Shown: positions 15,988 through 48,488, numbered from the stretch's first letter. The stretch: DNA of 64,000 bases from a virus (IMGVR_UViG_2609460125_000009); one strand, 5' to 3'. Notes: a model not told the origin generated them from the sequence alone. A program made the numbers and translations.

Positions 15988-16042
15988 CCTGCTTCTGTAT
16001 ATATAAATAATAAGTAACTTATTAAATATATACGGAAGCAGG
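15988..16042. repeat. 55-bp hairpin element, copy 1 (CCTGCTTCTGTATATATAAATAATAAGTAACTTATTAAATATATACGGAAGCAGG)
   Basis: Imperfect palindrome with a motif-family-2-like centre; identical copy at 48434-48488. Confidence 0.7.
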
Positions 16043-16104
16043 CTTCGTAAGACATGCCAGACCTAATTAAACACCCCAGAAAACAAGTTGGTTAGCAGAT
16101 GCAG

Positions 16105-16119
16105 TAAACAAGTTGTTTT
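16105..16119. promoter_or_regulatory. motif family 1 site TAAACAAGTTGTTTT (degenerate second copy at 16078-16093)
   Basis: Upstream of the terminase small subunit gene; followed by a GAGCGC…GCGCTC hairpin. Confidence 0.5.
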
Positions 16120-16158
16120 AGAGCGCATGGACGCGCTCTGTGTGTTTTAGAGGGATCT

Positions 16159-16791
16159 ATGACGGTCGAAAAAGACGAGGTAAAAACTCGCCTGACACCA
16201 GCGGAGTGGGCCGAAGCTGAAGCCAAATGGACGTCAGGCGAATATACACTCTCAAAGCTGGAGGAAGAGTACGGCATTCGTCGTGAAACACTCTCCAGAC
16301 ATTTCAAAAAGCGAGGATTAGAGAAAGGCGCGGACTCTGTTGGGAAGATGGTTCGTGAGTCTCTTAAATCTGACGCAGAGCTTCGCGCTAAAGCCCGTGC
16401 GGAAAAGATAGAAGAACGTCGTACACGTTATGACGGCTGGGCGTATGCGTTGGGGCAGATGGTGATGGTCGAAGTCACTACGGCCAAACGTGAGGGTAAG
16501 CCTTTAGGGGCGATTGAGGATTCTCTCAAGAGCTTACAGAGAGCCAGTAATACCCTTGCAAAATGCTTTGAAGTTTCGTCCAAAGCATTGGGCATGGATC
16601 ATGCGGAAAATGACGAGGAAGAAATTCCGAACCTGGTATTTGGTGAGCTTACGCCTTCCCAGGTGGCGAAATTACGTCAGGAAGACGACGAGCCTGAAAT
16701 CATCGATGACGAATTGCTTGAGACGTTGGAAGAAGAAGCTCTAAGCGAATTTGATGCGACAGATGATGGAAGTGAAGGGGAGGACGAATAA
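16159..16791 (+). CDS. terminase small subunit (putative)
   Basis: Position immediately upstream of terminase large subunit; acidic C-terminus. Confidence 0.55.
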   Translation: MTVEKDEVKTRLTPAEWAEAEAKWTSGEYTLSKLEEEYGIRRETLSRHFKKRGLEKGADSVGKMVRESLKSDAELRAKARAEKIEERRTRYDGWAYALGQMVMVEVTTAKREGKPLGAIEDSLKSLQRASNTLAKCFEVSSKALGMDHAENDEEEIPNLVFGELTPSQVAKLRQEDDEPEIIDDELLETLEEEALSEFDATDDGSEGEDE

Positions 16792-18047
16792 TGGCAATCC
16801 CGTCCTCGCTCAGTCTTGTGCAACTGCATTCTGGACAGATGAAAGTCTTCCAGTCTCCGCATCGATTTAAAGTTGTTTGTGCTGGTCGACGCTGGGGAAA
16901 ATCCCGGTTGTCGATCTCCACTATTATTCGTGCGGCGGCAAAGGAAAAAAAGCAAAGGGTCTGGTATGTCGCTCCTACTTACCAGATGGCTCGCCAGATT
17001 TTGTGGGACGATCTACAGGAAGTTCTGCCTCGTAAGTGGGTTAGGAAAAAGAACGACACCACGATGACAATCGTGTTGAAGAACGGTTCGGAGATCGCCC
17101 TCAAAGGTGCTGATAAGCCTGACACTCTGCGCGGCGTAGCGTTGCATTTTGTAGTGCTTGATGAATTTCAGGATATGAAGGCTGACACTTGGTACAAGGT
17201 GTTACGACCTACTCTTTCATCGACACGCGGCGGTGCACTGATCATTGGTACGCCAAAAGGCTTCTCGGAATTTCACAAACTGTGGACTATAGGCCAGAAC
17301 GTAGAGCTGCAAAGAAAGGGACAGTGGAAGAGCTGGCAGTTTGTAACTGCCGATTCTCCGTTTGTACCTACGGCGGAAATTGAAGCTGCTAAGAACGATA
17401 TGGACCCCAAATCGTTCGCTCAGGAGTACCTGGCCAGCTTTGAGAACATGTCCGGGCGCGTTTACTACCCGTTCGATCGTAACGTGCATGTAAAACCGCT
17501 TCAGTTCAACCCTCGGTTACCTATATGGGTAGGGCAGGACTTCAACATTGACCCGATGTCTTCCGTAATTTTGCAACCTCAGCCAAATGGTGAGCTATGG
17601 GCAATTGATGAATTGGTGCTCTTTTCCTCTAACACGGCAGAGGTTTGTGATGAGCTTGAGAGACGCTTCTGGCGCTGGAAATCACAGATAACGATATTTC
17701 CAGATCCGGCAGGTGCTTATCGCCAACATGCTCGCGGGGAGTCTGACGTCGACATATTCAAAGAGAAGGGATTCTTACGTGTCGATTATTCGAAAAAGCA
17801 CCCGCCAATTGCGGATCGTGTTAATGCTGTTAACCGAATGCTGATGACCGCATCTGGAGATATCCGGCTGTATATCGATCCGAAGTGCAAGCATTTGATT
17901 GATTCACTGGAAAAAGTCATCTACAAGCCTGGAACACGAGATATGGATAAGACAGGTGGCATTGAGCATAGTGCAGACGCATTGGGCTATCCAGTACATC
18001 GTAGGTATCCAGTCAAAAACCGTGTTATTCTTGGTGGTTCTCGATAG
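16791..18047 (+). CDS. terminase large subunit
   Basis: Walker A-like VCAGRRWGKS, Walker B VVLDEF; gene order. Confidence 0.8.
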   Translation: MAIPSSLSLVQLHSGQMKVFQSPHRFKVVCAGRRWGKSRLSISTIIRAAAKEKKQRVWYVAPTYQMARQILWDDLQEVLPRKWVRKKNDTTMTIVLKNGSEIALKGADKPDTLRGVALHFVVLDEFQDMKADTWYKVLRPTLSSTRGGALIIGTPKGFSEFHKLWTIGQNVELQRKGQWKSWQFVTADSPFVPTAEIEAAKNDMDPKSFAQEYLASFENMSGRVYYPFDRNVHVKPLQFNPRLPIWVGQDFNIDPMSSVILQPQPNGELWAIDELVLFSSNTAEVCDELERRFWRWKSQITIFPDPAGAYRQHARGESDVDIFKEKGFLRVDYSKKHPPIADRVNAVNRMLMTASGDIRLYIDPKCKHLIDSLEKVIYKPGTRDMDKTGGIEHSADALGYPVHRRYPVKNRVILGGSR

Positions 18048-18073
18048 GTAAGTAATTATCTAAGGTTATTCAA

Positions 18074-19648
18074 ATGGAATTGAACGACAAACAAATTAAG
18101 GATCTGGTGGCGCGACGCCACCCGGAATACGAAAAGAAAAAAGAACATTGGGACTTCCTCGCCAGCACTTACGCTGGCGGGCGTGGTTGGTTTACAGACA
18201 ATATCTTTCGTTACTTTAAAGAGGGAGATCAGGAGTTTAAGGAGCGAGTTGAACGTGCTTATCGCTTCAACCACACTCGTGAGGTGGTAAACCTCATCAA
18301 CAAATATCTCTTTAAAGAAGACATTCATAGAAATATCGAAGAGGCACCAGAGCAGATCCGCAATTTCTGGAAACGTGCGACTCGCCAGAATGCCTCTATT
18401 GACTCATTTATGGCCGCTATTGATTTGCAGTCGTCTATTTACGGTCGCATATGGGTTGTTGTCGATAGCACGATGAGTGGTGATGTTGAGTCAGTAGCTG
18501 ACGAGAAAAAGAAAGATGCTCGCGCCTACGCCTACTGGATTTCACCTCAGCAAATGCTGGATGTGGCATGGGACGACGACGGGAATATGTTGTGGGCGTT
18601 AATTGTGGAAGTCGCTCGTGATGACGCAGATCCTTTTACTTCTACAGGTCAGGAATACCAACGTTATCGTCTGTGGACACAAAACGAGTGGTATCTGTTC
18701 CGTGAGGAAGTGAAGAAGGGCGCTGGTGGAGCAGGTCGCCGTCAGGCAAAAGTTATTTTAGAGGATAGCGGTGAGCATAATCTCGGCGTAGTTCCTGTGT
18801 TTCCTGTTGATTGTATTGGAGAAAGTGAATCACCGTATTTCAGCCCATCGTTGATCGATGATATCGCTTATCTTGATCGTGCGGTTGCAAACTATCTGTC
18901 AAACCTTGATGCCATTATTCAGGATCAGACATTTAGCCAGTTGGCTATACCGGTACAGTCGCTTTTACCTGGTGATGAAAACCACACTAAAGTGCTTGAA
19001 ATGGGCACAAAGCGAGTCTTCACCTACGATTCTGAAGGCGGAAACCAGCCGTTTTATCTGTCACCAGACCCGAAACAAGCTCAGATGATCATCACTACGA
19101 TTAAGACGGTGATTAACGAAATCTACCATTCAGTTGGTGTAGCTGGTGAGCGAACGAAGCAGGACAACGCACAGGGAATCGATAATTCATCTGGTGCCGC
19201 AAAAATGTATGACTTCCAGCGTGTAAATAGCTTGCTTGTCACAAAAGCAGAGCGTCTGGAAAGGGCTGAACGCCAAATCATGCTACTGGTTGCGAAATGG
19301 ATGGGGGTAGATCTGGACGAAGACCACTCTTTAATTGCGTATCCAGAAAGTTTCGATATTCGTGGCCTTACTGATGAATTTTCTGTTGCCGAGAAACTGT
19401 CATTACTTCAGGCACCGGACTCTGTACGTCGTCACCAGATGGAAATGCTTATTGAGAAGATTTTCCCGAACATTACTGAGGCGATGAAAAAGGAATTTGA
19501 TAAAGATCTCTTGAATTTTCCTCCAAAAAATGATCTAAATACCCTTGAAAATAAGTCAGTACTTACTTATGATCGTGGTGCAGCCCAAGAAAGCGGGCAA
19601 GATCAACCCCGAGGGAATGGGGACTCATCTACTCAAGAGAACGAGTGA
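18074..19648 (+). CDS. portal protein (putative)
   Basis: 524 aa directly after terminase large subunit. Confidence 0.65.
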   Translation: MELNDKQIKDLVARRHPEYEKKKEHWDFLASTYAGGRGWFTDNIFRYFKEGDQEFKERVERAYRFNHTREVVNLINKYLFKEDIHRNIEEAPEQIRNFWKRATRQNASIDSFMAAIDLQSSIYGRIWVVVDSTMSGDVESVADEKKKDARAYAYWISPQQMLDVAWDDDGNMLWALIVEVARDDADPFTSTGQEYQRYRLWTQNEWYLFREEVKKGAGGAGRRQAKVILEDSGEHNLGVVPVFPVDCIGESESPYFSPSLIDDIAYLDRAVANYLSNLDAIIQDQTFSQLAIPVQSLLPGDENHTKVLEMGTKRVFTYDSEGGNQPFYLSPDPKQAQMIITTIKTVINEIYHSVGVAGERTKQDNAQGIDNSSGAAKMYDFQRVNSLLVTKAERLERAERQIMLLVAKWMGVDLDEDHSLIAYPESFDIRGLTDEFSVAEKLSLLQAPDSVRRHQMEMLIEKIFPNITEAMKKEFDKDLLNFPPKNDLNTLENKSVLTYDRGAAQESGQDQPRGNGDSSTQENE

Positions 19649-19669
19649 TAAGTAACAAAAGGAATTTTT

Positions 19670-20557
19670 ATGAATCTGTGGCAAATGCTTTTGGCCCGTC
19701 GTGGTCTGATGGATGTCGCTGAAGCGCATGAGCGTGGAGGCGCTGGCGGTGTAGCTGCTGATAATGAGCAGAGTACACAAGATCCTGATAAACAGGGTGA
19801 ACAAAAAGAGCAGCCGAAGGGCGATGACGAATACGCTGGCATGACTCAGGAAGAGTTACTGGCCGAACTTCGTAAAACCAAGAAAGCTGGTGCTGAACTG
19901 CTGAAGGAGAACATGAAGCGCAAAGAGAAAGAGCGCACATTGGCCGATCAGCTTGCTCAGTACGGTGATATCGATCCGGCTCGTGCTCGCCAGCTTTTAG
20001 AAGCTGAACAGGCCGCAGAAAACGCACGTCGTGAGGCGGAGCAAGCTGAACTGGAGCGTCGTGGTGAGTTCGATGCTGTTAAAAAACAGATGATCGAAGC
20101 ACACCAGGCAGAGCTGGCACAGCGTGACGAATGTTATGCAGCACTGGAAAGTGAAAACGCATCACTGAAATCTCAATTAGTCGAGATGACCGTGGGCGCT
20201 TCCTTCAGTAACTCTCTCTTCCTACGTGACAAAGTTCTGATGACCCCGGCAAAAGCCCGCGTGATCTACGGTTCTCATTTTGAAGTGGGTGAAGACGGTA
20301 GCGTAGTGGGTTATGACAAACCGGCAGGTCACAAAGAACGAGCTGTTCTGGTTGACGGTGAAGGTAAGCCGTTGCCGTTTGAATCCGCGATTGAACGCAT
20401 TGTGCGGGCAGATCCGGAAGCTGACGCATTGATGCGTAGCGAAGCCAAGCAGGGTGTAGGCTCACATTCCAAATCGACCTACACAATATCCCAACCGAAG
20501 AACAAGTCGACTATGGATAAGTTGGCCTCCGGTCTGGGGAAAATTGGACTTAAGTAA
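19670..20557 (+). CDS. scaffolding protein (putative)
   Basis: Charged, coiled-coil-like sequence between portal and capsid genes. Confidence 0.55.
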   Translation: MNLWQMLLARRGLMDVAEAHERGGAGGVAADNEQSTQDPDKQGEQKEQPKGDDEYAGMTQEELLAELRKTKKAGAELLKENMKRKEKERTLADQLAQYGDIDPARARQLLEAEQAAENARREAEQAELERRGEFDAVKKQMIEAHQAELAQRDECYAALESENASLKSQLVEMTVGASFSNSLFLRDKVLMTPAKARVIYGSHFEVGEDGSVVGYDKPAGHKERAVLVDGEGKPLPFESAIERIVRADPEADALMRSEAKQGVGSHSKSTYTISQPKNKSTMDKLASGLGKIGLK

Positions 20558-20582
20558 CATCTAAATCAAAGGGAATTGATAG

Positions 20583-21458
20583 ATGCCATTACTGCGTGAA
20601 GAAGCTGAAAAGCTGTCTAACAACGAACTTGAACAGGGTGTGATCGAAACTATCATCGATCGCGATGACCTGTTTGCCATCCTGCCTTTTATGAAAATTA
20701 ATTCAAAGGCATATCTGTACAACCGTGAAAAAACGCTGAGTGAAGCTACCTTCATCGACGTTAACGACACCATCCCTGAAGGTGCAGCAACCTTCGAAGA
20801 ATGCGTTGCGAAACTGCGTATTCTGGCTGGTGACGTAGACGTTGATAAATTCCTGGCGACCACTATGGCCGACACCAACAACCAGTTGGCTATTCAGGTT
20901 CGTCAGAAAGTTAAAGGTCTGGCTCGTGCGTTCCGTCGCAACCTGATTTTGGGTGACTCCAGCTCCAACAACAAGGCGTTTGACGGCATTCCACGCCTGA
21001 TGCACGCAGATCAGAAGATCGATATCGCCGGTGCATCTATGACTTTCTCTATGTTCGACGAACTGGTCGATGCGGTGAAAGATCTTGGTGCTGACTGCAT
21101 CATGATGCGTTCAGAGCACCTGCGTGCTTACCGTGCGCTGCTGCGTACAGTAAACGTAGGTCCGTCTGAAATCATGATGGAGAACTTCGGTCGTCCGATG
21201 CTGTGTCATAATGGCGTTCCGTTCATCATCAACGACTTCATCCCGACCGATGCTGGCAAAGCAAGCATCTACTGCCTGCATCTGTCAGAAGAGAACGGCG
21301 TTACTGGTCTGTATGGCGGCGATAACGCAGGTATCGTTGTTGAAAACATTGGTACTGTACAGAACAAAGACGCAGTACGTACCCGTGTGAAGTGGTACTG
21401 CTCTCTGGCGAATAAGCACGATAAGGCTATCGCTGCACTGACCAATGTAAAAATTTAA
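20583..21458 (+). CDS. major capsid protein (putative)
   Basis: Gene order; strong terminator immediately downstream. Confidence 0.65.
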   Translation: MPLLREEAEKLSNNELEQGVIETIIDRDDLFAILPFMKINSKAYLYNREKTLSEATFIDVNDTIPEGAATFEECVAKLRILAGDVDVDKFLATTMADTNNQLAIQVRQKVKGLARAFRRNLILGDSSSNNKAFDGIPRLMHADQKIDIAGASMTFSMFDELVDAVKDLGADCIMMRSEHLRAYRALLRTVNVGPSEIMMENFGRPMLCHNGVPFIINDFIPTDAGKASIYCLHLSEENGVTGLYGGDNAGIVVENIGTVQNKDAVRTRVKWYCSLANKHDKAIAALTNVKI

Positions 21459-21492
21459 TCAGTGTGATAGATAAGCAATTATCTATGTTTAA

Positions 21493-21518
21493 GGGTGGGC
21501 TATACGCCCACCCTTTTT
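21493..21518 (+). terminator. rho-independent terminator after the capsid gene
   Basis: GGGTGGGC…GCCCACCC stem followed by TTTTT. Confidence 0.7.
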
Positions 21519-31520: not shown

Positions 31521-31602
31521 GCATCTGGATAAGTAAGTACTAATTTACTATCATTGTGGCGCTGACAGGATGTTAGCGCCTACTTATTTCAAGGATGAAA
31601 CA

Positions 31603-33091: not shown

Positions 33092-33669
33092 TTCATGTGC
33101 AGCTTGGCGGCCCTATGGCCAAACATTTTGGCCGCCACTGGCATCTAAAGGTGCGTAATACAAAACAGGCTCTGGATTTAATTGAGGCCAACAAGCCTGG
33201 GTTTAAAGCATGGATGAAGCGCAATATCAAAACCTATGACAGATACCACATCCAGATCACCAATAAACAGGGCCACAAGTGGTCTGTGGACGAGAGTGAA
33301 TATCAGATGATGGGGCAGTCTGACAATATTGCAAAAATCCGCATTACCCCTGTTCCGCGAGGAAGTGGTGGATCTGCTTTTGGATGGTTTCAGACGGTTG
33401 TTGGAGCAGTATTAATGGTTGCCTCGATATGGGTGCCCGCTCTTGCGCCTCTCGGTTTGTCACTGATGATGGGCGGTATAGCACAAATCATATCTCCGCA
33501 AGCCACTAACGAAAGTGTGAGGCAGGCGGATAACTCGAACTCTTATTACTTTGATGGACCTCAAAACACAACAAACCAGGGGAACCCTGTACAGCTTATC
33601 TATGGCGAGGAAATTTTAGTTGGCTCACAGGTCGTGAGTTCTTCTATCACCATCGACCAGCTTATGTAA
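33079..33669 (+). CDS. tail assembly protein (lambda I-like)
   Basis: Position; C-terminal hydrophobic segment. Confidence 0.65.
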   Translation: MSELVHVQLGGPMAKHFGRHWHLKVRNTKQALDLIEANKPGFKAWMKRNIKTYDRYHIQITNKQGHKWSVDESEYQMMGQSDNIAKIRITPVPRGSGGSAFGWFQTVVGAVLMVASIWVPALAPLGLSLMMGGIAQIISPQATNESVRQADNSNSYYFDGPQNTTNQGNPVQLIYGEEILVGSQVVSSSITIDQLM

Positions 33670-38503: not shown

Positions 38504-41500
38504 ATGTGGTACAGGGAAGGTACTATCACATTTACACAGGGCAGCAATACTCTGGTTGGGGCAGGGACAGCCTGGAACGTAACAGCTAATGGTGTGTTGC
38601 CGGGGATGATCGTCATTGGCCCCGACAATAAGCTGTATGAGATCAAGCGCGTAACCAGTGATACGAACATTGTTCTCTCAGAACCTTATACCGGCGAAAC
38701 TCAGTCTGAAGTTCCGTGCCGAATCATTACGACCTATGAAGGCGACTTAACACAGTTTAGCGCGCGCTTTACAGCACTAATGTCGCGTATGTCGGCTGAT
38801 TCCAAGTCCATGCGCAGTTGGTTGACTGCTCTGGATGAGGTGACAATCGAGCGTGAAGACGGTACAGAAGTGACCGTTAAGCCGCTAATGCAGATCGTCA
38901 ACGAGCACAACGAAAACGTTGAGTGGTATAAAAATAACACTGACGCGATTGATGCTGCTGGCGACAAAGCTCGTGAGGCGGCGGCCAGTGCTGCCGCAGC
39001 AGCAGAAAGCGCCAATATCGCTGGAGAAAAAGCCTCTCAAGCGTCTCAAAGTGCATCCGCTGCAGAGTCCTCAAAAAGCGCGGCGGCCACAAGTGCCGGT
39101 GCCGCGAAAACGTCTGAAACGAATGCTGCAGCGTCACAAAAATCTGCAGCCACTTCTGCATCCACCGCGACCACGAAGGCGTCAGAAGCTGCCACCTCAG
39201 CCCGGGATGCGGCGGCCTCAAAAGAGGCAGCGAAATCATCAGAAACGAGCGCAGCCTCGAGCGCCAGTAATGCCGCTTCCTCGGCAACGGCGGCAGGAAA
39301 TTCCGCGAAGGCGGCAAAAACGTCCGAGACGAACGCCAGGTCTTCTGAAACGGCAGCGGGACAGAGCGCCTCGGCTGCGGCAGGCTCAAAAACAGCGGCT
39401 GCGTCGTCTGCCAGTGCCGCGTCAACAAGTGCCGGGCAGGCCTCAGCCAGTGCCACCGCCGCCGGAAAATCGGCAGAAAGTGCCGCATCGTCTGCTTCAA
39501 CAGCCACAACGAAGGCTGGCGAAGCCACTGAACAGGCCAGCGCAGCAGCGAGGTCTGCTTCCGCAGCGAAGACATCCGAAACGAACGCGAAAGCGTCGGA
39601 AACCCGTGCAGAATCCTCAAAAACGGCAGCCGCATCGTCCGCCAGTTCGGCAGCGTCATCGGCATCATCTGCGTCTGCTTCAAAAGATGAGGCGACCAGA
39701 CAGGCGTCAGCAGCGAAGGGCAGCGCCACGACGGCATCCACGAAAGCAACAGAGGCGGCAGGCAGTGCGACGGCAGCATCTCAGAGCAAAACTGCTGCTG
39801 AATCCGCTGCGACCCGTGCGGAAGCTGCTGCTGATCGTGCTGAAGAGATTGCCGGTGCAGTTGCGATGGAAGACGCAAGCCTTACAACTAAAGGTGTTGT
39901 GAAACTTAGCAGTGCTGTCGACAGCACCAGTGAATCGCTGGCCGCAACGCCAAAAGCAGTTAAAGTAGTCAATGACAATGCGAACAGCAGGGTGCCATCT
40001 AACCGAAAAATTAACGGGAAAGCACTGACTGCGGATATCACATTAACGCCGAAAGATATTGGTACTTTAAATTCAATAACGATGTCTTTCTCTGGCGGGG
40101 CCGGGTGGTTCAAACTGGCTACTGTTACAATGCCACAAGCGAGTTCCATCGTTTACATCGCATTGATTGGTGGCGCTGGTTACAACGTCGGCTCCCCACA
40201 TCAGGCAGGCATTTCAGAACTGGTTCTACGAGCAGGCAATGGAAACCCCAAAGGGATTACAGGTGCTTTGTGGAAGCGTACAGCTGTCGGATTAACGAAT
40301 TTCGCCTGGATCAACACATCCGGCGATACATATGATATTTACGTTGAGATTGGCAATTATGCGACTCGTGTAAATATCCATTGGGATTGTACTGCAAATG
40401 CGACAGTTTCTATTTATACATCGCCAACATATTCAGCTAGTAAGCCTTCCAGCGTTACCGATGGTGTTGTTTATACGATGTATAGCACACATCAGAAACC
40501 GACGCCGTTAGATATTGGAGCACTGCCAACAACCGGAGGAACAGTTTCAGGTCCGTTGTCTGTTACTGGTGGGATCACCGGAACATTAAATGGTAATGCA
40601 AGTACAGCAACGAAATTGCAGACGGCAAGATCTATCGGTGGAGTTGGTTTCGACGGTTCTGCAAATATCAACCTTCCAGGTGTAAATACTACGGGTAATC
40701 AGAACACCACTGGTAATGCTGCAACTGCTACAAAACTTCAGACGGCAAGAACTATCGGCGGCGTGAGCTTTGATGGTACTGCGAATATTAATTTGCCAGG
40801 TGTTAATACGACTGGTAATCAGAATACAACGGGCAACGCGGCTACTGCTACGAAGTTGCAGACTGCGCGTACTATCAATGGGGTGTCGTTTGACGGCTCG
40901 GCAAATATTTCCTTGTCGCCAGCAAATATAGGTTGCCCGGCATCTCCTACTGGTTGGTTAACTACAGGAAGTAATGGCGGAGCAATAACAACAGCACAGT
41001 TAGTGACGTTATTGCAAAATAATGGAGCATTTAACACAAAGTCATGGATTGCTCGATGTGCTTGGGCCTATGCCAATAGTGCAACCATACCAAATAGTGA
41101 AACTGGTTGTGGCGTTATTCCATTGGCAGGAGCTGTTATAGAGGTATTTAATAACGGTAGTAGCTCAAACAATTATACGATCCGTATAACAACGGCCACA
41201 ACGACGAGTGTCTCTGGTGCTCTCACTAATGCGGAGTTTATCTATGTATTTAATGGCACAGATTATTCTCCGGGATGGCGAAGAGTATATAACACGAAAA
41301 ACAAACCAACAGCCTCTGATGTCGGTGCATTACCTCTTACCGGTGGTACATTATCTGGAGGTTTGACATCTTCTGGCGAGATCATTTCAAAATATGCAAA
41401 TGGTTTCCGCATTGCTTACGGTAGCTTTGGGTTCTTTATCCGTAATGATGGATCGAACACATATTTCATGCTAACAGCATCAGGAGACACATTAGGTTCA

Positions 41501-42661
41501 TGGAACGGTTTGCGACCAATTACAATTAATAATACCAGCGGTGCTGTATCAATTGGTAATGGACTAAATGTGACTGGTGGCGTAAATGGTAGTTTGAACG
41601 GTAATGCTTCAACAGCTACGAAGTTGCAAACAGCGAGAAACATCAATGGTGTTAAGTTTGATGGCTCAGGCGATATCAACATTAATACATTGGTATCTCG
41701 TGGCCGAGTTACGGCGTTAAGCGGCTCTACTCAAGGCACTGCTGGCATTCAAATGTACGAGGCGTACAACAATAGCTACCCGACCACGTATGGCAACGTA
41801 TTGCACATGAAAGGTGCGAGTGCTGCTGGTGAGGGCGAGTTGCTTATTGGCTGGAGTGGTACGAGCGGTGCACATGCGCCAGTTTTCATTCGCTCACGAA
41901 GAGATACCACAGATGCGGCATGGTCAGCGTGGGCGCAGGTATATACTGCTAAGGATTCAATCCCTGGTGTGAATACAACCGGTAATCAGAATACTACTGG
42001 TAATGCCGCAACAGCCACAAAATTGCAGACAGCAAGGAAAATTGCTGGTGTGGCGTTTGATGGCTCTGCCGATATTACTTTGACTGCGGCTAACCTTAAT
42101 GCTTATACGAAAACAGAGGTAACAAACCTTCTAAGTTCCTATGCAAGCAGATCATCACTGACAGGCTATAGTGGCAACCTGGATATTATTGCTGAAACAC
42201 TGGTTGTCAAATCAGGCGGTAGTGGAGGGTTTGCTATATGGGATATTGGCACAACTACTAGCGGTGCCAATATGTACATTGATCCAAACCCTGGTATCAA
42301 TACAGTTTGGCGTTCAACATCTTCAAGGCGCTATAAAAAGGATATTGAAACATTACAAGATCGATATGCTGATGAACTTTTGTCATTAAGACCTGTTTGG
42401 TATCGTTCAATTTGTCGAGGTGACCGAAAGGATTGGGGGTATTACGGCCTTATTGCTGAAGAGGTTGGTGAGATTGCCCCGCAATATGTCCATTGGCGTG
42501 AACCAACAAATAATGATTCTCCAGAAGATATTTCCTCAAATGGTATGGTCGCTGAAGGGGTGATGTATGAGCGTTTGGTTGTACCACTCATTCATCATAT
42601 TCAGCAATTGACCAAAAGGGTTGAGGAGCTTGAAACGAAGTTAAATTCACCTAAAGAATAA
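38504..42661 (+). CDS. side tail fibre with C-terminal intramolecular chaperone (peptidase S74-like) domain
   Basis: Ala/Ser-rich low-complexity region, five GNAATATKLQTAR-containing repeats, C-terminal chaperone-like block (…YGLIAEEV…). Confidence 0.8.
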   Translation: MWYREGTITFTQGSNTLVGAGTAWNVTANGVLPGMIVIGPDNKLYEIKRVTSDTNIVLSEPYTGETQSEVPCRIITTYEGDLTQFSARFTALMSRMSADSKSMRSWLTALDEVTIEREDGTEVTVKPLMQIVNEHNENVEWYKNNTDAIDAAGDKAREAAASAAAAAESANIAGEKASQASQSASAAESSKSAAATSAGAAKTSETNAAASQKSAATSASTATTKASEAATSARDAAASKEAAKSSETSAASSASNAASSATAAGNSAKAAKTSETNARSSETAAGQSASAAAGSKTAAASSASAASTSAGQASASATAAGKSAESAASSASTATTKAGEATEQASAAARSASAAKTSETNAKASETRAESSKTAAASSASSAASSASSASASKDEATRQASAAKGSATTASTKATEAAGSATAASQSKTAAESAATRAEAAADRAEEIAGAVAMEDASLTTKGVVKLSSAVDSTSESLAATPKAVKVVNDNANSRVPSNRKINGKALTADITLTPKDIGTLNSITMSFSGGAGWFKLATVTMPQASSIVYIALIGGAGYNVGSPHQAGISELVLRAGNGNPKGITGALWKRTAVGLTNFAWINTSGDTYDIYVEIGNYATRVNIHWDCTANATVSIYTSPTYSASKPSSVTDGVVYTMYSTHQKPTPLDIGALPTTGGTVSGPLSVTGGITGTLNGNASTATKLQTARSIGGVGFDGSANINLPGVNTTGNQNTTGNAATATKLQTARTIGGVSFDGTANINLPGVNTTGNQNTTGNAATATKLQTARTINGVSFDGSANISLSPANIGCPASPTGWLTTGSNGGAITTAQLVTLLQNNGAFNTKSWIARCAWAYANSATIPNSETGCGVIPLAGAVIEVFNNGSSSNNYTIRITTATTTSVSGALTNAEFIYVFNGTDYSPGWRRVYNTKNKPTASDVGALPLTGGTLSGGLTSSGEIISKYANGFRIAYGSFGFFIRNDGSNTYFMLTASGDTLGSWNGLRPITINNTSGAVSIGNGLNVTGGVNGSLNGNASTATKLQTARNINGVKFDGSGDININTLVSRGRVTALSGSTQGTAGIQMYEAYNNSYPTTYGNVLHMKGASAAGEGELLIGWSGTSGAHAPVFIRSRRDTTDAAWSAWAQVYTAKDSIPGVNTTGNQNTTGNAATATKLQTARKIAGVAFDGSADITLTAANLNAYTKTEVTNLLSSYASRSSLTGYSGNLDIIAETLVVKSGGSGGFAIWDIGTTTSGANMYIDPNPGINTVWRSTSSRRYKKDIETLQDRYADELLSLRPVWYRSICRGDRKDWGYYGLIAEEVGEIAPQYVHWREPTNNDSPEDISSNGMVAEGVMYERLVVPLIHHIQQLTKRVEELETKLNSPKE

Positions 42662-42976: not shown

Positions 42977-43584
42977 TGTACGGAAGCAAGATATATCGAT
43001 CTGACGGGAAGGTCTGGATGTCTCCTTCTTTGTCTCCTATCGTCTTTCAGAGAAAGCAGGTTGTTTCTTTGTCTGGCGGGACAGAGTTTAACACCCAAAT
43101 ATCTCCAGATCGTTCACCGATGATTTTTGTTGCCTATTCGAAAGCTGTTTCATTAATAGCCAACAGAATAGTGCGTAACAACCAGGTGATTTACAGTTTC
43201 GGAGGTCAGGGTAGCGACTCTAGTGCCACGATATACGTATTTTCGAAAGGTATAGCCAAAAAAGAAACTTGGGGCATGAGTTTTTTCAATGCACAAGGGG
43301 AGGAAATCTATAATACGGCAAATATCCCACTTTCATTTACCTTTCTTAATAATACGGAGTGGAACAGCTCTGGAGGGCATGTTTTTGATTACCCACCAGC
43401 GATAATCCCAACATATGCGAATGTGTTCGCTGTTCCAGTACCGGGCGGAGCCATGACAATGGTTTATGGATATGCGGCATATGGAAATACTGTTAGCTCG
43501 ATATTCGTAAACCAACTTAATGGCGGCCATAGTTTTAGCGTAAATGGCAGAGTACCGGTAATAAATAGAAATCTGTATAACTGA
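42976..43584 (+). CDS. hypothetical protein
   Basis: 202-aa ORF overlapping the upstream stop. Confidence 0.45.
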   Translation: MYGSKIYRSDGKVWMSPSLSPIVFQRKQVVSLSGGTEFNTQISPDRSPMIFVAYSKAVSLIANRIVRNNQVIYSFGGQGSDSSATIYVFSKGIAKKETWGMSFFNAQGEEIYNTANIPLSFTFLNNTEWNSSGGHVFDYPPAIIPTYANVFAVPVPGGAMTMVYGYAAYGNTVSSIFVNQLNGGHSFSVNGRVPVINRNLYN

Positions 43585-43591
43585 TGAGTAA

Positions 43592-43825
43592 ATGATGAAA
43601 AGATTATTTCTAACAATAGCTGTTGTTCTCTCTCTTACTGGCTGCCAGAAATTGCCGACACCTATATGTTACGGTGAGGCTATCATTGGTGGACAGGAGA
43701 CAGTCATACCCATATATGCTGTTAAAAAAGTGAACGACTATACCTTATACAAAGCGGGTAGCATCTATAACTGGCGATGGGTAGGAGTAGGTGCTTTCTC
43801 ATCAGTCCGTTGCAATGTTGAATGA
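43592..43825 (+). CDS. small lipoprotein, candidate superinfection-exclusion protein
   Basis: Signal peptide with lipobox LTGC; 77 aa; located after the tail fibre genes. Confidence 0.55.
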   Translation: MMKRLFLTIAVVLSLTGCQKLPTPICYGEAIIGGQETVIPIYAVKKVNDYTLYKAGSIYNWRWVGVGAFSSVRCNVE

Positions 43826-43906
43826 TAAGTAAGTACACACCTACAACAAGAAGGTGAAATGTGATATAAATCCGCCATCCCGATTTGACTTTTCATGGAG
43901 GAAAAC

Positions 43907-44230
43907 ATGTCGAACGAGATGGCGGGCGTTACAACAGAGCAAGTTGAGCGTATTGCCGCGATCGTTGCTCGGGAGGTTGTTGGCAAATTAGGTAAAGAGC
44001 TACGTGAAGAAATTGGCCAGGAGGTCAATGATCAGCTGAAAACCTACTTTGGTGATATGACCCCGGCGCAACATAGTATTCAACACTCCAACCTGGACAA
44101 ACTCCTTAACCGGTTAGATTCCATCTCCAGTGGGTTCTTTGGCGGCATTGTTTCTAAAATAACGTCGTTCATTATTACTGCACTGCTTTTGGGGTTAGCC
44201 GCGTATGGCGTAAAAAATGGACTGCAATAA
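43907..44230 (+). CDS. putative holin-like membrane protein
   Basis: C-terminal transmembrane segment; first gene of the lysis block; start at the ATG with GGAGGA RBS. Confidence 0.4.
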   Translation: MSNEMAGVTTEQVERIAAIVAREVVGKLGKELREEIGQEVNDQLKTYFGDMTPAQHSIQHSNLDKLLNRLDSISSGFFGGIVSKITSFIITALLLGLAAYGVKNGLQ

Positions 44231-44243
44231 CAGGAGATCAAGG

Positions 44244-44936
44244 ATGAAGACTCCGAGAGGCATTCGTAATAATAACCCCGGTAATCTTGATAAAGGATCA
44301 CCGTGGCAAGGTCTGGTTGCGAATCCAGACGAACCGCGCTTTTGCACGTTTAAAGACCCTGTTTGGGGGATTCGTGCGCTGGCGGTGACTCTAATTACCT
44401 ACCACGACAAACGTCGCGCAAAAGACGGCTCAAGTATCGATACCATTCGTGAAGTTATTGAACGTTGGGCACCGCCGAATGAAAACAACACTGACGCCTA
44501 CATTAATGAGGTGTCTAAAGCCGTTGGTGTAACCGCAGACATGATCATCGATCTGCATGATTACGACATCCTTCGACCTTTGGTTGAGGCAATCATTCGC
44601 CACGAGAATGGTCGAGGTCCACTAAAAACGCTGAACACCTGGTATGCGGCAGAAGTTATTGAAGAAGGTCTGCGTCGAGCTGGCGTCGTTAAGCCGGTGA
44701 AAACCGTGAAGGCTGTTCCTGTAACTAAAGAAACCGCAGGCGCAACTGTCACAGCAGGTATTGGTCTGGCGCAGCTTGCCGATGTTATGCCGCAGGTTTC
44801 CGCTGCTATGGATAAAGCACAAGGTCATATCTCTAGCGGGGATACAGTACGCATCATCTTCGGTATTGCCACTATTTTTGTGGCCGGATTCATTGCCTGG
44901 TCGCAGGTAAGAAGACACCAGAAAGGGATGGTCTAA
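44244..44936 (+). CDS. putative cell-wall hydrolase / lysis protein with C-terminal membrane anchor
   Basis: Position between holin-like gene and spanins; C-terminal transmembrane segment; enzymatic class not determined. Confidence 0.4.
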   Translation: MKTPRGIRNNNPGNLDKGSPWQGLVANPDEPRFCTFKDPVWGIRALAVTLITYHDKRRAKDGSSIDTIREVIERWAPPNENNTDAYINEVSKAVGVTADMIIDLHDYDILRPLVEAIIRHENGRGPLKTLNTWYAAEVIEEGLRRAGVVKPVKTVKAVPVTKETAGATVTAGIGLAQLADVMPQVSAAMDKAQGHISSGDTVRIIFGIATIFVAGFIAWSQVRRHQKGMV

Positions 44937-44937
44937 T

Positions 44938-45189
44938 ATGCTAGGCAGCCTGATGACAAAGCTAAAAGTTGCTTTGATTACGCTGGCTGCCGTTCTTTTC
45001 GTTCTTGTCGGCGCTTACACGATGGGCGGAAATGCGGCGCGACGAGCAATGGAAGAGAAGGCAAAACAGGAAGACAGAAAACGACTTCAAAACACAGTGA
45101 AAGTGGTGAATGAGACGAGCAGTAAAATACGTCAGAAAGATGCTTCTGCCGTTCATCGTGAGTTGTATGATAAGTGGGTGCGTCATTAA
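44938..45189 (+). CDS. i-spanin (Rz-like)
   Basis: N-terminal transmembrane segment followed by a charged coiled-coil. Confidence 0.6.
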   Translation: MLGSLMTKLKVALITLAAVLFVLVGAYTMGGNAARRAMEEKAKQEDRKRLQNTVKVVNETSSKIRQKDASAVHRELYDKWVRH

Positions 45190-45325
45190 ACCACAAACAG
45201 CCAGCGTGTTGTTCTGCGATGGGGCTGAGCCTATCTATATCAGCAATAATGATGTAATGACTGAAGAAACCGAACGCCAAATCCTTTTTCACAATACGAT
45301 GGGAGAGAGGGTTTGTGGTTGGTGA
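45140..45325 (+). CDS. o-spanin (Rz1-like lipoprotein), overlapping the i-spanin gene in another frame
   Basis: Signal peptide with lipobox ISGC; begins inside the i-spanin gene and extends beyond it. Confidence 0.55.
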   Translation: MLLPFIVSCMISGCVIKPQTASVLFCDGAEPIYISNNDVMTEETERQILFHNTMGERVCGW

Positions 45326-45357
45326 TGTCGAAGTTCCCCTCAAATGAGGGGAACACA

Positions 45358-45879
45358 TTATTCTTCGAACAATTTTTCGATAGATTTTGTAGGATAGAAC
45401 AAAGAACGCTCGTTGTTACCAACCAGCTGGATAAAGCCTAAACTTTTATAAAACGCCTTGGCTTTGTCATTTAACGCCTCAACGAAAAGTCCATGAATGC
45501 CTACAGCAAGAGATGCATTGTACACAACGCGCATTGCATGTGTTACAAGCATTGAGCCAAATCCTTGACCTTGAAGGGACTTGTCCAAAGCCAGCCTACC
45601 CAAAGTAACACTTGGAACATTCCGATAAGGAACCTTCTTTTGTTTGCTTCTTGAAGGTAAGGACTCCTTTTCAAAACAACTACCTGACAAAGTGTAATAT
45701 CCTAACACTTTTGGCCTTTCTTCTTGAGTGCAAAGCACATAAGCACGAAGAATTTTTCCCTCATGCTGCCTTTTTAAGTGGTTGGCTAAAAAGGCGTTTA
45801 GTGACTCTTCGCCGCAATCAAAACCGTTTAGATCATAATCTTTCTCTCCAGAGAAAATCTCTATCGTTGTATTGCTCAC
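45358..45879 (-). CDS. GNAT-family acetyltransferase toxin (TacT/KacT/AtaT-like)
   Basis: GNAT motif QGQGFGSMLV; directly downstream of an RHH antitoxin-like gene. Confidence 0.7.
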   Translation of the reverse strand: MSNTTIEIFSGEKDYDLNGFDCGEESLNAFLANHLKRQHEGKILRAYVLCTQEERPKVLGYYTLSGSCFEKESLPSRSKQKKVPYRNVPSVTLGRLALDKSLQGQGFGSMLVTHAMRVVYNASLAVGIHGLFVEALNDKAKAFYKSLGFIQLVGNNERSLFYPTKSIEKLFEE

Positions 45880-45886
45880 GAGTAAA

Positions 45887-46156
45887 CTACTCCATGCTTT
45901 TCAGACGATCAGCAGCTCGTTTCAGCTTGTCGTTCGGTGCCGGAGGATTGCTTATAGCGTCCATAACCAGATTCCAGGATTCTTCATTCAGAACTAGTCT
46001 ACGGTGTTGCTCTATAACTTTCACGGCACGTTCAGATGCACTGCTAACCATAAACTGAGTAATGCTCTGGTTAGACATTGCGGCAGCTTCCTCGATGATG
46101 CTTTTATCGTCATCGGTTAATCTCAAATCGATGCGCTGCTTTTTTAGTGCTGACAT
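45887..46156 (-). CDS. RHH antitoxin (DUF1778-like)
   Basis: Small ORF with AGGAGG RBS; 8-bp gap to the toxin gene. Confidence 0.6.
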   Translation of the reverse strand: MSALKKQRIDLRLTDDDKSIIEEAAAMSNQSITQFMVSSASERAVKVIEQHRRLVLNEESWNLVMDAISNPPAPNDKLKRAADRLKSME

Positions 46157-46424
46157 GTATTCCTCCTGATGGCCGTGATGTAGGAAGGCCATCAATCTCC
46201 TCTGTTCAAACTGAGTTTTCGACTCAAAAATTACTTTAAAAGGCTATAGCCCATTACGTGTGCATTATCAAATTGTGTACGGCATAACACCGTACTTGTA
46301 ATATAGAGGTCATTGTTACTTTTTTCAACAGACAAATACAAGCTATGATTGCCAATTGTTAATCACAACCTACCATTTAACCTTTACACCGCAGCCGTAG
46401 GCATTTAGGCTATATCACATATAA

Positions 46425-46440
46425 GAAAACAAGTTGTTTC
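46425..46440. promoter_or_regulatory. motif family 1 site GAAAACAAGTTGTTTC
   Basis: Palindrome ~35 bp upstream of the ParA gene. Confidence 0.5.
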
Positions 46441-46474
46441 AGACGATAATTATATACGCAAAGGGAACTCTCCA

Positions 46475-47143
46475 ATGACCAAGATCTTTGTGGTTGGCGG
46501 CACAAAGGGCGGGCCTGGCAAATCCACCCTTGCCCAGCAAATTGCCGTTTGCCTTAAAGTCAAAAAGAAGAAGAAGGTTTATATCACTGATATAGATATT
46601 CAGCGCACGACAACAAGCTGGTGTGAAGACCGTCGACAGAACGAAGACCTTGAGCTGATTCCTTTTGCATACGTTCAGGATGACATCATTAAGCACCTAA
46701 AATCGCTTCAGGGTAGAGCTGAGTATGTAGTGGTAGATGCTGGTGGCTTCGACTCCGAAATTCAGCGACAAGCGATGCTGATGGCTGACGTTATCATTAT
46801 CCCGCTGCGTCCTAAGCGTCGTGATTTGAAATCTTTACGTGACATCGATCCTATTATCGACAATGTTCGCAATGTAAACGATAAAGTGAAGGTCCGCGCG
46901 GTCATGAACCAGTGCCCGGCTTTGCCATCACAAGTGTCTCGCATTCTGGCGGCTAAAGAGATTGTTGAGACGTTTGGAATCGAGTCTGCGCCAGTCAATC
47001 TGTATAACCGCAACGTCTATGATGATGCGGAAGAGTCTGGTCGTTCTATCTTTGAAATGACCGGTAGCGAGCGCGACAAAAAGGCGGAAGCCGAGTTTGA
47101 AGAATTTGTAGATTATCTGTTGAGTCTGGAGGAAGAAGAATAA
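46475..47143 (+). CDS. ParA-family partition ATPase
   Basis: Deviant Walker A GGTKGGPGKST. Confidence 0.8.
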   Translation: MTKIFVVGGTKGGPGKSTLAQQIAVCLKVKKKKKVYITDIDIQRTTTSWCEDRRQNEDLELIPFAYVQDDIIKHLKSLQGRAEYVVVDAGGFDSEIQRQAMLMADVIIIPLRPKRRDLKSLRDIDPIIDNVRNVNDKVKVRAVMNQCPALPSQVSRILAAKEIVETFGIESAPVNLYNRNVYDDAEESGRSIFEMTGSERDKKAEAEFEEFVDYLLSLEEEE

Positions 47144-47502
47144 TGTCCATGAAAATGGGTGACCTAGCAAAGCGCAAAGAGCCTGATGCACCGGCTAAGA
47201 ACACAACTCCTTTGCGCCAACCAGTCAGACCACAGGGACGCCCGACTCGTGGCAAAGAGAAAATTAAAAGCCGCACAATGTCACTGGAGGACGAATACTT
47301 CGAACTGCTGGAGATGATGAAGTTCATCCCTCGCTTCGAGAAGTTCACTCGTTCTGACGTGATTCGAGCAGCCATTTTCCATCTGGCAGAGAAGTCACCG
47401 CAGGAAATCGAGGACATCGTGAAATTGAATGAGGCGATCACCGCTGCCGATGTCACGATGCGTACCGATGAAATCAAACGAGAGTTGATGAAGAAAGGTT
47501 AA
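47143..47502 (+). CDS. partition adaptor / centromere-binding protein (ParG-like RHH, putative)
   Basis: Small ORF translationally coupled to ParA (TAATG); basic disordered N-terminus. Confidence 0.5.
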   Translation: MSMKMGDLAKRKEPDAPAKNTTPLRQPVRPQGRPTRGKEKIKSRTMSLEDEYFELLEMMKFIPRFEKFTRSDVIRAAIFHLAEKSPQEIEDIVKLNEAITAADVTMRTDEIKRELMKKG

Positions 47503-47554
47503 AAATCATGCATTGGCGCGTACATTGCGCCAATGCATAACTACAGTGTCAGCT

Positions 47555-48322
47555 TTATGCCGCGCTAACACTATGTTCAGTCCTAACCACCCCAACCTTC
47601 ACAAAAGGGCTACCGTAGCTTGGTGGCTTCTTGATTAATTTGCCTACATACAGTTTTCTAATATGCTCATCGGCTATTCTGCCAACAAATTCATAACGTT
47701 TTGTGTCGGGGCCAAGAGCTATATCCCTTGTAAAGTACTGCTGAGAACCGGCTTTGACCCAGCATTCAATCTGATAAACTTCCATTATCAGCCCACCATA
47801 TGTAGCGTAGGCATATTTGAGATTCTCGTCTCTTGGAACCTTTGCCCATACGCCACGCGTAGCTTCATATAATGCCAGAGCGGACATTCCTGACTTGTAG
47901 GTGCTGTTTAGCAGGAAGGCAAGACCGGCGTGCTCAGGAGCAATTTCAGTTTCCTCTTGCAGCACTAAGTGATGGTAGGCGTCCAGTGATATTCTGCCCA
48001 TCATGGAACCACTTCCTCGTACCTTATTCGTAAGCTCTCCGACCCCCATAAGGTCGATGCATGTCGCCTCAACAAGTTTGGCTGTGGTTTCATCCATACC
48101 ATGACGAAGTATATCTATGCCTAATTTTTTATTAGCCAAAAGTTCTTTGATCCGCATGGATTTGGGAGAGTCATCGGGATACTTGATGTGATCGAGACAA
48201 CGAGTCGATTTGCCTTTTCCTATGTAAAACGGTCTTTTCATCTTGTCTTCTGTATCATAGAGACAGTAAACATAGTATTTAGCCTTATCCAATGATCTCG
48301 CGTATACCGATAAATCGTCCAT
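47555..48322 (-). CDS. GIY-YIG nuclease domain protein
   Basis: N-terminal YVYCLYD…FYIGKGK…R…H motif; C-terminal domain unassigned. Confidence 0.55.
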   Translation of the reverse strand: MDDLSVYARSLDKAKYYVYCLYDTEDKMKRPFYIGKGKSTRCLDHIKYPDDSPKSMRIKELLANKKLGIDILRHGMDETTAKLVEATCIDLMGVGELTNKVRGSGSMMGRISLDAYHHLVLQEETEIAPEHAGLAFLLNSTYKSGMSALALYEATRGVWAKVPRDENLKYAYATYGGLIMEVYQIECWVKAGSQQYFTRDIALGPDTKRYEFVGRIADEHIRKLYVGKLIKKPPSYGSPFVKVGVVRTEHSVSAA

Positions 48323-48433
48323 TATTGCATCTCTTTGCTACTGACTAATGCGTTCTATTTTACACATAAGTTTTTAATCAATTTAACAGGCTCAAAGTGT
48401 AGAGCTTCTGGGCGTCTAAGACGACAAGTTATG

Positions 48434-48488
48434 CCTGCTTCTGTATATATAAATAATAAGTAACTTATTAAATATATACGGAAGCAGG
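48434..48488. repeat. 55-bp hairpin element, copy 2
   Basis: Identical to 15988-16042. Confidence 0.7.

Follow-up and report, generated by a model that had tools for sequence, protein, structure and literature searches.

Long conserved hairpins at three gene-block junctions of SSU5-like phage-plasmids, a candidate family of transcription terminators or insulators

The viral DNA stretch IMGVR_UViG_2609460125_000009, analysed here over its whole length of 64,000 nucleotides (the window), is, judging by its sequence, an SSU5-like phage-plasmid. In the regions compared, Escherichia phage CMS-2020a matches it at 99.7% identity, PhiR41_1 at 98%, Salmonella phage SSU5 at about 81% and, over the parts of the tested regions that the two share, Cyrano (pLF82) at 96.8-99.5%. 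Members of this group include pHCM2 of S. Typhi, many plasmids of Klebsiella, E. coli and Enterobacter, some of which carry resistance genes, and Y. pestis plasmids with the same large terminase subunit, TerL (96.7% identity); TerL homologues are present on 996 PLSDB plasmids. We found no description of the cis-acting control elements of SSU5-like phage-plasmids in the searchable literature. The element considered here is a 55-bp sequence, CCTGCTTCTGTATATATAAATAATAAGTAACTTATTAAATATATACGGAAGCAGG, which an earlier note had picked out as an exact repeat in the window and had taken to be a possible packaging or recombination site, bidirectional terminator or regulator-binding site. The literature on these phage-plasmids that we searched makes no mention of the 55-mer or its hairpin, and its sites carry no annotation in RefSeq.

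The 55-mer occurs exactly twice in the window (Table 1), in the same orientation and with 0 mismatches, as had been reported. No further copies with up to three mismatches were found in the window, and none arose in 100 dinucleotide-preserving shuffles. The gene context was also described correctly. Copy 1 lies 24 nt past the stop codon of an 88-amino acid open reading frame (ORF) of winged helix-turn-helix (wHTH) type and 116 nt ahead of the small terminase gene terS (16159), and copy 2 is flanked on one side by the start of a minus-strand GIY-YIG gene (47555-48322) and on the other by the replication block of p249, DnaB and primase genes.

Each copy is an imperfect palindrome with the ends CCTGCTT...AAGCAGG. 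The RNA fold of 86 nt around copy 1 has a stem of ~26 bp (dG -33.6 kcal/mol, z = -8.0), in which 17 bp are followed by a 3x1 internal loop, a further 7 bp and, at the tip, a loop of 3 nt; the basal 10 bp of the hairpin are GC-rich. The inner arms of copy 1, CCTGCTTCTGTATA and TATACGGAAGCAGG, enclose an AT-rich centre with TAAGT-A-ACTTA, so the palindrome does have the family-type centre ascribed to it: TAAGT-N(0-12)-ACTTA has 11 sites in the window vs 0.5-0.6 expected. The 55-mer is only the core of an extended hairpin of ~100 nt. In copy 1 this structure begins 3 nt past the stop codon at 15961-15963 and is closed by the outer arms GGTCTGG (15966-15972) and CCAGACC (16057-16063); in copy 2 the corresponding arms are TTCTGG (48406-48411) and CCAGAA (48506-48511). 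When 126-136 nt are folded, outer stems of 5-16 bp form. The 126-nt folds of the window copies have dG values of -49.1 kcal/mol (copy 1, z -9.0) and -42.5 kcal/mol (copy 2, z -7.2), and the extended fold of a third copy in SSU5 reaches -42.8 kcal/mol (z -6.7). Searches with Rfam 15 gave only sub-threshold matches of the element to generic miRNA hairpins (14-21 bits vs gathering scores of 81-211), and on the whole window tRNAs alone passed the gathering score.

Table 1. Positions of the two hairpins and of the features next to them, numbered from the first nucleotide of the window
Feature	Position	Strand	Basis or remark
88-amino acid winged-helix-like gene preceding site 1	15697..15963	+	PHROG 900, no Pfam match
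Copy 1, extended hairpin	15966..16063	+	flank alignment of 56 distinct sequences, fold
Copy 1, core; site 1 (wHTH gene / terS)	15988..16042	+	exact match, fold
Leader hairpin and T-run before terS, canonical terminator	16119..16140	+	terminator scan match
Copy 2, extended hairpin	48406..48511	+	fold; right-flank CCAGA motif
Copy 2, core; site 2 (parA/p119/cargo / p249-dnaB)	48434..48488	+	exact match to copy 1
T-run TCTTTT directly after the copy 2 stem; would-be U-tract	48489..48494	+	
p249, first gene past copy 2	48605..49345	+	likely ATG at 48605, AGGTGA upstream; 246-amino acid cluster P0121

Members of the TAAGT-N(0-12)-ACTTA family, the centres of the two cores included, were recorded at 5232, 12754, 16011, 19552, 25047, 38442, 48457, 52008, 55530 and 62191. 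These palindromes lie mostly just past stop codons, and the motif recurs in the AT-rich apex of the hairpins of distant relatives. An E. coli plasmid has 15 such sites, SSU5 has 14 and Cupriavidus has 0.

The earlier note had proposed a search of related genomes for the element and its positions, and this search located it at the same three junctions in SSU5, in the E. coli plasmid NZ_CP027358 and in the complete Moellerella plasmid pW1-b. The junctions lie between the wHTH gene and terS (site 1), between the parA-cargo region and p249-dnaB (site 2), and between a Dam methylase gene and the next block (site 3). In SSU5 the site 1 copy spans both ends of the linear record (SSU5_130 / terS), the site 2 copy occupies 33458-33513 (DUF2971 gene / SSU5_038-DnaB) and the site 3 copy occupies 78304-78360 (the Dam-type methylase SSU5_088 / SSU5_089). 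Each of them starts 22-28 nt past a stop codon of the + strand, with 115-118 nt between its end and the next start codon. The three copies of NZ_CP027358 are spaced by about 33.5, 46 and 30 kb. Only two arm pairs were found in the window; as its relatives have three copies, the third would lie beyond the window ends. The count of two 55-bp elements is thus right for the window, but the genomes carry three and each structure spans ~100 nt with its outer arms. Since nearly all genes are co-directional, copies at these junctions cut the circle into three blocks, devoted to late, lysis and partition functions, to replication and nucleotide metabolism, and to regulatory and accessory functions.

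A pattern scan of IMG/VR with the outer 10-bp arms returned at least 120 loci, 96 of those listed having an AT-rich centre, and tblastn typing of these 96 listed loci placed 32 at site 1, 39 at site 2, 24 at site 3 and 1 at no site. A scan of this kind is biased to exact arms, and we therefore resampled by protein homology. The element was present upstream of terS in 74 of 76 TerS-anchored loci and upstream of p249 in 78 of 80 p249-anchored loci; the four loci without it (two of each kind) have truncated flanks, so that the figures for loci with enough flank are 74/74 and 78/78. Among complete E. coli genomes 259 of 5426 (4.8%) carry the element, at 403 places, all on plasmids, none chromosomal and none annotated.

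The earlier note had argued from exact identity to function. Function is well supported: across Enterobacterales the element occupies fixed positions in all relatives whose flanks are long enough, and far more distant lineages have analogous hairpins. Identity itself is a poor guide, as just 6 of the 36 genomes that yielded both copies 1 and 2 have them identical, which makes exact identity the trait of a sublineage rather than the rule. The mean distance between copy 1 and copy 2 is 5.5 edits within genomes and 5.7 between genomes, and there is thus no general homogenisation of the copies (concerted evolution). Class-1 and class-2 alleles are re-assorted among genomes, and the identity of the two window copies probably stems from gene conversion.

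An alignment of the flanks of 56 distinct sequences defines what is kept. The inner arms CCTGCTTCYGTATA and TATACRGAAGCAGG are nearly constant across variants, and an outer inverted pair, TCTGG(G)AG and CTCCCAGA, is found 12-27 nt outside them in most aligned sequences of all three classes. The centre is AT-rich yet variable, class-specific and in some variants non-palindromic. The left arm is often changed (to CCTGTTTCTG, CCTGCGTCTG or CCTGCATCTG) and the right arm almost invariant. At site 2 cargo often replaces the left outer arm, up to the core edge, with the right-flank CCAGA and the right inner arm being kept, also in most variants that have lost the left outer arm. Several site 2 elements are inverted as a whole within unchanged flanks, which indicates that the core can function in either orientation and fits a hairpin whose U-run lies in the flank. 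A T-rich tract follows the stem directly in 21/21 distinct class-2 flanks, mostly as TCTTTT or TCTTTTT and otherwise as TCTTTG, TTTTTT, TTGTTTG or TCATTTT, and most class-3 copies are followed by CTGTTTTG or CTTTTTAG.

Changes in the arms were read directly from the sequences, because an arms-only MAFFT alignment misplaced the Moellerella lineage. The Moellerella arms (CCTAGCTCCCAT...ATGGGAGCTAGG) are specific to this lineage and common to all three of its elements. Compared with the E. coli arms CCT-GCTTCCGTATA/TATACGGAAGC-AGG, the Moellerella arms CCTAGCTCCCATA/TATGGGAGCTAGG show two compensated substitutions (T-A to C-G and G-C to A-T) and one inserted A-T pair; one variant within the E. 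coli lineage has C5-G51 changed, again with compensation, to T5-A51. The common arm changes yield G.U pairs on the + strand (C5>T, C8>T, C52>T and T9.G47), and their symmetric counterparts on the right arm, G>A, are seldom found. From this comparison of sequences, the substitution pattern leans toward a constraint at the RNA level, with few independent events.

To reach more distant relatives we drew a TerL-anchored sample of one-genome-per-species contigs comprising 33 loci (TerL identity 41-97%). Of the 26 loci with a recognisable terS, 10 had the best inverted repeat of the ~9-kb locus within 330 nt upstream of that gene, where position alone would predict about one, and 8 more had a weaker inverted repeat there, mostly with an AT-rich spacer. 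In alphaproteobacterial and other proteobacterial relatives unrelated arms with 11-26 matched bases occupy the same place. Most alphaproteobacterial arms have 18-26 matched bases (11 in locus L158), and those of Faunimonas, about 35 nt long, have 26; the Qipengyuania arm is TCATCCCGATCCTTCGTT, and the Morganella arms are GCCGTG/CACGGC. The Moellerella site 3 hairpin would provide about 21 bp of double-stranded RNA. Distant lineages thus keep the hairpin with changed yet complementary arms, and its centre is AT-rich even in genomes of ~60% G+C, often with TAAGT/ACTTA. In a Cupriavidus plasmid, examined to test a GC-rich background, sites 1 and 2 show AT-rich zones and no clean hairpin, so the element is widespread rather than universal. 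No inverted repeat of this type was found upstream of terS in several beta- and gammaproteobacterial loci, and an IMG/VR scan with the alphaproteobacterial arms GATCCTTCGTT...AACGAAGGA returned one match only.

Expression data are available for Cyrano, in the form of RNA-seq of an LF82 lysogen with gene-level counts for ten samples (PMC9928086, supplementary table). The parA operon, CYRAN_28-30, has 50-89 normalised counts (log2 up to 10.4), and the next co-oriented gene, the p249 homologue CYRAN_31, has 6.2 (log2 2.3-4.2 in all 10 samples) and is silent in lysogens (PMC9928086). The drop across the copy-2 gap is about 10-fold to 230-fold, and the background median is 9.8. The 193-nt gap between CYRAN_30 and CYRAN_31 contains the site 2 element and then TCTTTTAAAG; no other inverted repeats were seen in it. 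We infer that the hairpin itself causes the drop and that it does so as RNA.

The best reading of these observations, to which we give about an even chance of being right, is that the elements are RNA hairpins that end or insulate three co-directional transcription blocks. Taken together, their position, the compensated changes, the independence of orientation, the U-run and the drop at site 2 give it more support than any other reading has. Each hairpin would mark the 3′ border of one co-directional gene block: it begins a few nt past the block's last stop codon, and from its end about 70-120 nt remain to the opening gene of the following block, a gap that would contain the control region of this following block. 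As + strand RNA the element would adopt a highly stable hairpin and so end or insulate the transcript arriving from upstream. Copy 2, a hairpin followed by UCUUUU, would act as an intrinsic terminator which in lysogens blocks transcription of the parA operon from entering the lytic replication genes. Copy 1, having no U-run, is probably a weak terminator or a 3′-end hairpin just upstream of the late control region, where the leader terminator before terS (Table 1) would stop leakage past it. Of the earlier suggestion of a bidirectional terminator, termination has direct support for copy 2 only and in the rightward direction only, from the conserved U-run and the Cyrano counts, and bidirectional action is unsupported.

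The terS leader itself was compared among relatives. A GC hairpin with a T-run also precedes terS in beta- and alphaproteobacterial relatives, and at the same place distant relatives have a palindrome over a TTGACA-type promoter, then a GC hairpin and T-run. This arrangement suggests control of the late operon by antitermination.

Several results weigh against hairpins that end or insulate transcripts. Site 1, the most widely conserved of the three, has no U-run in any lineage, class-1 copies being followed instead by CTTCGTAAG or TTCTGAAT. The RNA-seq evidence consists of gene-level counts from a relative rather than mapped 3′ ends, and in Cyrano the drop at site 1 is only ~2-4-fold and both neighbouring genes of site 3 are at background. 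Stems of 18-26 bp or more, with AT-rich apices of 25-95 nt even in hosts of ~60% G+C, go beyond what a terminator needs. A simple terminator scan called neither copy; since its genome-wide counts were at shuffle level and it missed both copies, we consider the scan too rigid for long stems with bulges. (A simple promoter scan did not call either copy.) Pairing is also imperfect: distinct sequences at position 9/47 read TG (16), CG (12), TA (6) and CA (3), so that C.A is not avoided, and Klebsiella copy 1 has 3 non-Watson-Crick pairs among its 10 basal pairs. Finally, the arms are common to the three copies within a lineage and different between lineages, and the right arm is far better conserved than the left, being kept even where the left has decayed (loci L131 and L132). 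Arms shared throughout a lineage and a better-kept right arm suggest, as far as sequences can tell, recognition that is sequence-specific.

These last features, like the missing U-run at site 1, would be expected of a DNA-level site with dyad symmetry for a phage-encoded protein, its hairpin potential being a by-product of that symmetry, an explanation that we consider possible but rather unlikely. GC-rich half-sites and the outer ones would then flank a flexible or easily melted AT-rich centre with the TAAGT/ACTTA core, and the site could serve as a lytic replication origin, a terminase recognition site or a nucleation site for a regulator or silencer, with the 88-amino acid wHTH protein, TerS, p249 and the two ParB_N proteins as candidate partners. 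The regulator-binding site of the earlier note is thus possible. Consistent with this, the arms stay unchanged as centres diverge, versions ranging from gamma- to alphaproteobacterial share a CG(G)AAG core, and the AT-rich TAAGT/ACTTA centre is retained in GC-rich hosts. The wHTH gene and a TAAGT-type element also co-occur upstream of terS in the loci read, and the three loci without such an element (L139, L140 and L156) have a different upstream gene. However, no partner protein was found, p249 having neither a Pfam match nor a recognisable fold; the wHTH gene precedes site 1 only, and Cupriavidus has a homologue of it yet lacks TAAGT palindromes and a clean hairpin. An arm spacing of 21-95 nt is awkward for one fixed protein complex, substitutions are uneven between the arms, with a tolerance of G.U that suits RNA better than a symmetric dimer site, the GC skew has no origin-like switch at any site, and the ParB_N genes are silent in lysogens. 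The fuller proposal that the hairpins are cis sites read by a conserved phage protein, which co-evolves with the arms and recognises the TAAGT/ACTTA apex, is likewise one that we rate as doubtful. A second alternative is processing by an enzyme of the RNase III type, which would cut long transcripts at double-stranded RNA of at least 20 bp, separate the blocks and leave a protective 3′ hairpin. The hairpins offer ~20 bp of double-stranded RNA or more, with 17 + 7 bp around an internal loop plus the outer stems, and stems of about two helical turns or more, well above the size of a terminator, are found in E. coli/SSU5, Moellerella and most alphaproteobacterial lineages. The internal loop, the occurrence of several similar copies at gene-block junctions and the dispensability of a U-run, which would fit site 1, all point the same way. 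But the 10-fold to 230-fold drop at site 2 is more simply explained by termination, in some lineages the arms are as short as 8-13 bp and the loops large, and cleavage itself is hypothetical; we regard such processing as improbable.

Readings in which the copies act in DNA exchange or packaging fare worse. As recombination substrates or anchors they would be linkers for the swapping of modules and cargo, or targets of a tyrosine recombinase. Homology with SSU5, Cyrano and CP054387 does break off at the left edge of copy 2 or no more than 10 nt from it (query positions 925-935, the edge being at 935), the cargo to its left varies (GIY-YIG, DUF2971, P-loop NTPase or CYRAN_30), alleles of classes 1 and 2 re-assort, and the identical copies in 6/36 genomes suggest gene conversion. 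Site-specific exchange between direct repeats would, however, split the plasmid into circles of 32 and 76 kb, arms 21-95 nt apart do not resemble a tyrosine-recombinase core of 6-8 bp, a palindrome at 57886-57918 that adjoins a recombinase gene is the better candidate for such a site, and anchoring would be a consequence of conservation rather than its reason. The cargo breakpoints are best seen as a consequence of core conservation, and we judge a recombination role very improbable; no evidence was found for the recombination site proposed earlier. Packaging fares no better. That copy 1 is a cos site or the physical end of virion DNA was raised by the SSU5 and Cyrano records, which begin inside copy 1, just upstream of terS. 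The SSU5 break (...ACTTATTA|AATATA...) falls at the very position where the identity between SSU5 copies 1 and 2 ends, so that it looks like an assembler stop at a repeat, an artefact rather than a DNA end. Moreover, cutting at three equivalent copies would leave the genome in three fragments. The window TerL matches the Pfam families Terminase_6N and Terminase_3, types that usually accompany headful packaging, and we take it to be of the headful type on this ground, which also argues against cos. A cos end can hardly be expected here, and the packaging site of the earlier note has no positive evidence in its favour. No mapping of ends is reported in the Cyrano paper, which sets Cyrano beside SSU5, and the Cyrano record start was probably taken over from SSU5.

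Further candidates were rejected on specific grounds. A tyrosine-recombinase core of the lox or dif type has arms of 11-14 bp around a 6-8 bp spacer, which the element lacks, and a cos site or fixed DNA end should be single, whereas each genome has three equivalent copies. The ends CCTGCTT...AAGCAGG do not fit the R'' RYYYAAC and R' GTTRRRY motifs of an integron attC site, and no integron integrase is noted in the annotation tables of the relatives' records. A host repeat family (REP, ERIC or MITE) does not account for 403/403 E. coli places being plasmid-borne at syntenic positions, and no target-site duplications are visible at the two window copies. Sequence and fold searches gave no sign that p249 binds an origin or loads a helicase. 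A replication origin is a less clear-cut case: the element does have an AT-rich centre flanked by conserved arms, no initiator was identified, and a role as an origin is possible.

The proteins encoded next to the hairpins gave few clues. A homologue of the wHTH gene lies upstream of the element in alphaproteobacterial loci and in one Oxalobacter locus, and the Cupriavidus homologue is 44% identical. PDB sequence searches returned no relatives of wHTH or TerS, and p249 had no match in Pfam, PHROG or PDB sequence searches; its confident AlphaFold2 model (pLDDT 87.5) had a best Foldseek E-value of 1.4. The GC skew is uniformly positive without a switch at the sites and is uninformative on origins. 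The wHTH gene closes a cluster (12772-15963) upstream of terS with two ParB_N proteins and two ABC-like ATPases that is also found in Cupriavidus and Moellerella. In the Cyrano lysogen ParA and p119 are expressed and this cluster is silent, so its function probably belongs to the lytic phase and not to plasmid partition. Two TerL-like clusters with a ParB_N Pfam hit, P0013 and P0017, may be fusions or mis-assemblies of ParB_N and terminase genes.

Other repeats lie near the two copies or elsewhere in the window. An intergenic palindrome family, AGAAAACAAnTTGTTT, has at least 12 sites (1041-1124, 3132, 4320-4360, 4812-4844, 5715, 6457-6497, 6950, 16065-16122, 46403-46443 and 49341-49373) and looks like a dispersed operator for a phage regulator. 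Two of its sites, as AGAAAACAAGTTGTTT-type palindromes, lie downstream of copy 1 and ahead of terS, where distant relatives have different palindromes that overlap a TTGACA -35. Three copies of the motif TGATAAGTAAGTA..CTAC, at 31527-31548, 43823-43844 and 48571-48592, each stand 20-70 nt ahead of a gene start, the last of them between copy 2 and p249. Near-identical (82-88%) GC-rich terminator-like hairpins form the pairs 6321-6359/6792-6830 and 8072-8105/8568-8601 (families D11 and D12), about 470-500 bp apart, and may be terminators duplicated with small genes, so that terminators in more than one copy are nothing exceptional for this genome. The palindrome AATGATTCCATACCTA-C-TATGTATGGAATCATT at 57886-57918 lies ~100 nt upstream of a tyrosine recombinase gene (58017-59120), with half-site copies at 55077 and 56089, and is a candidate recombinase or dimer-resolution site. 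Four long hairpins with 20-23-nt arms and 38-45-nt spacers (55749-55837, 56543-56630, 56680-56764 and 56995-57072) flank a tRNA cluster (Asn, Tyr, Thr and Ser; 56295-56992), and at least the second and third of them have arm sequence in common (ACAACnnnTAAGA...TCTTACCGTTGTG). Repeats with a 120-nt period (62-78% identity) run from 40591 to 42117 inside a large tail-fibre ORF (38504-42661). The minus-strand GIY-YIG gene is variable cargo, replaced elsewhere by DUF2971, P-loop NTPase, CYRAN_30 or other genes; as such cargo meets the left edge of the copy 2 core, this place is a cargo hotspot. The SSU5 record NC_018843.1, linearised inside copy 1, splits the element over both ends, where it is easily missed.

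We regard the hairpins as a previously undescribed family, most likely of the terminator or insulator type, with an unusual size, a fixed layout of three sites and arms common to whole lineages. A boundary element in three copies would help to explain how lytic genes stay silent while partition genes run on one co-directional circle. Its three sites of ~100 bp give a precise handle for engineering, or for tests of read-through, origin use and packaging, and the element also marks the edge of the cargo hotspot. Should it prove to be a terminator only, the result would be a useful annotation and no surprise. Were the sites instead read by a protein, they would mark off three controlled domains in a genome of 105-110 kb, acting for instance as lytic origins, as multiple packaging-initiation sites or by nucleating silencers or insulators that keep lytic blocks off in the plasmid state, and such a system would be common to the whole SSU5 supercommunity, from Enterobacterales to Alphaproteobacteria.

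Known systems resemble the element in part. The phage-plasmid N15 has dispersed inverted-repeat centromere sites bound by SopB, and the likeness lies in a few palindromes scattered within or next to lytic blocks, with copy 2 near the parA/p119 operon. The N15 sites are, however, short contiguous palindromes, whereas the arms here are 21-95 nt apart, the ParB_N genes are silent in lysogens, and Cupriavidus has its parA-like gene elsewhere and no clean hairpin. In the pac site of P1, symmetric repeat clusters flank a central cleavage region; it too is a composite symmetric site of ~100-160 bp near terminase genes, in a phage-plasmid with a headful-type TerL, but the present element has three copies, two of them far from terS, and no Dam-site hexamers. 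ERIC, MITE-like and attC palindromes share with it an imperfect structure of ~55-130 bp, a location in transcribed intergenic DNA and the neighbourhood of variable cargo. They differ from an element that has 0/403 E. coli matches on chromosomes, fixed syntenic positions and ends unlike those of attC.

Closer parallels are found among RNA hairpins. The RNase III sites of phage T7 (R0.3, R0.5, R1 and others) are dispersed and mutually similar long hairpins, and like the present ones they have internal loops and stand at block junctions of a co-directional genome; here there are three copies, one with clear terminator features, the apices are variable and sometimes unpaired, and cleavage is hypothetical. 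Intrinsic terminators such as lambda tR' and T7 T-phi stand at operon ends. The elements resemble them in the GC-rich stem base followed by a U-run in copy 2 and most site 3 copies, in their placement right after a stop codon and in the strong in vivo drop across copy 2. They depart from the usual terminator, with its stem of 5-12 bp, in a stem of 26 bp (about 40 bp with the outer arms), an AT-rich apex, the lack of a U-run at site 1 and the use of the same arms at three places and across genera.

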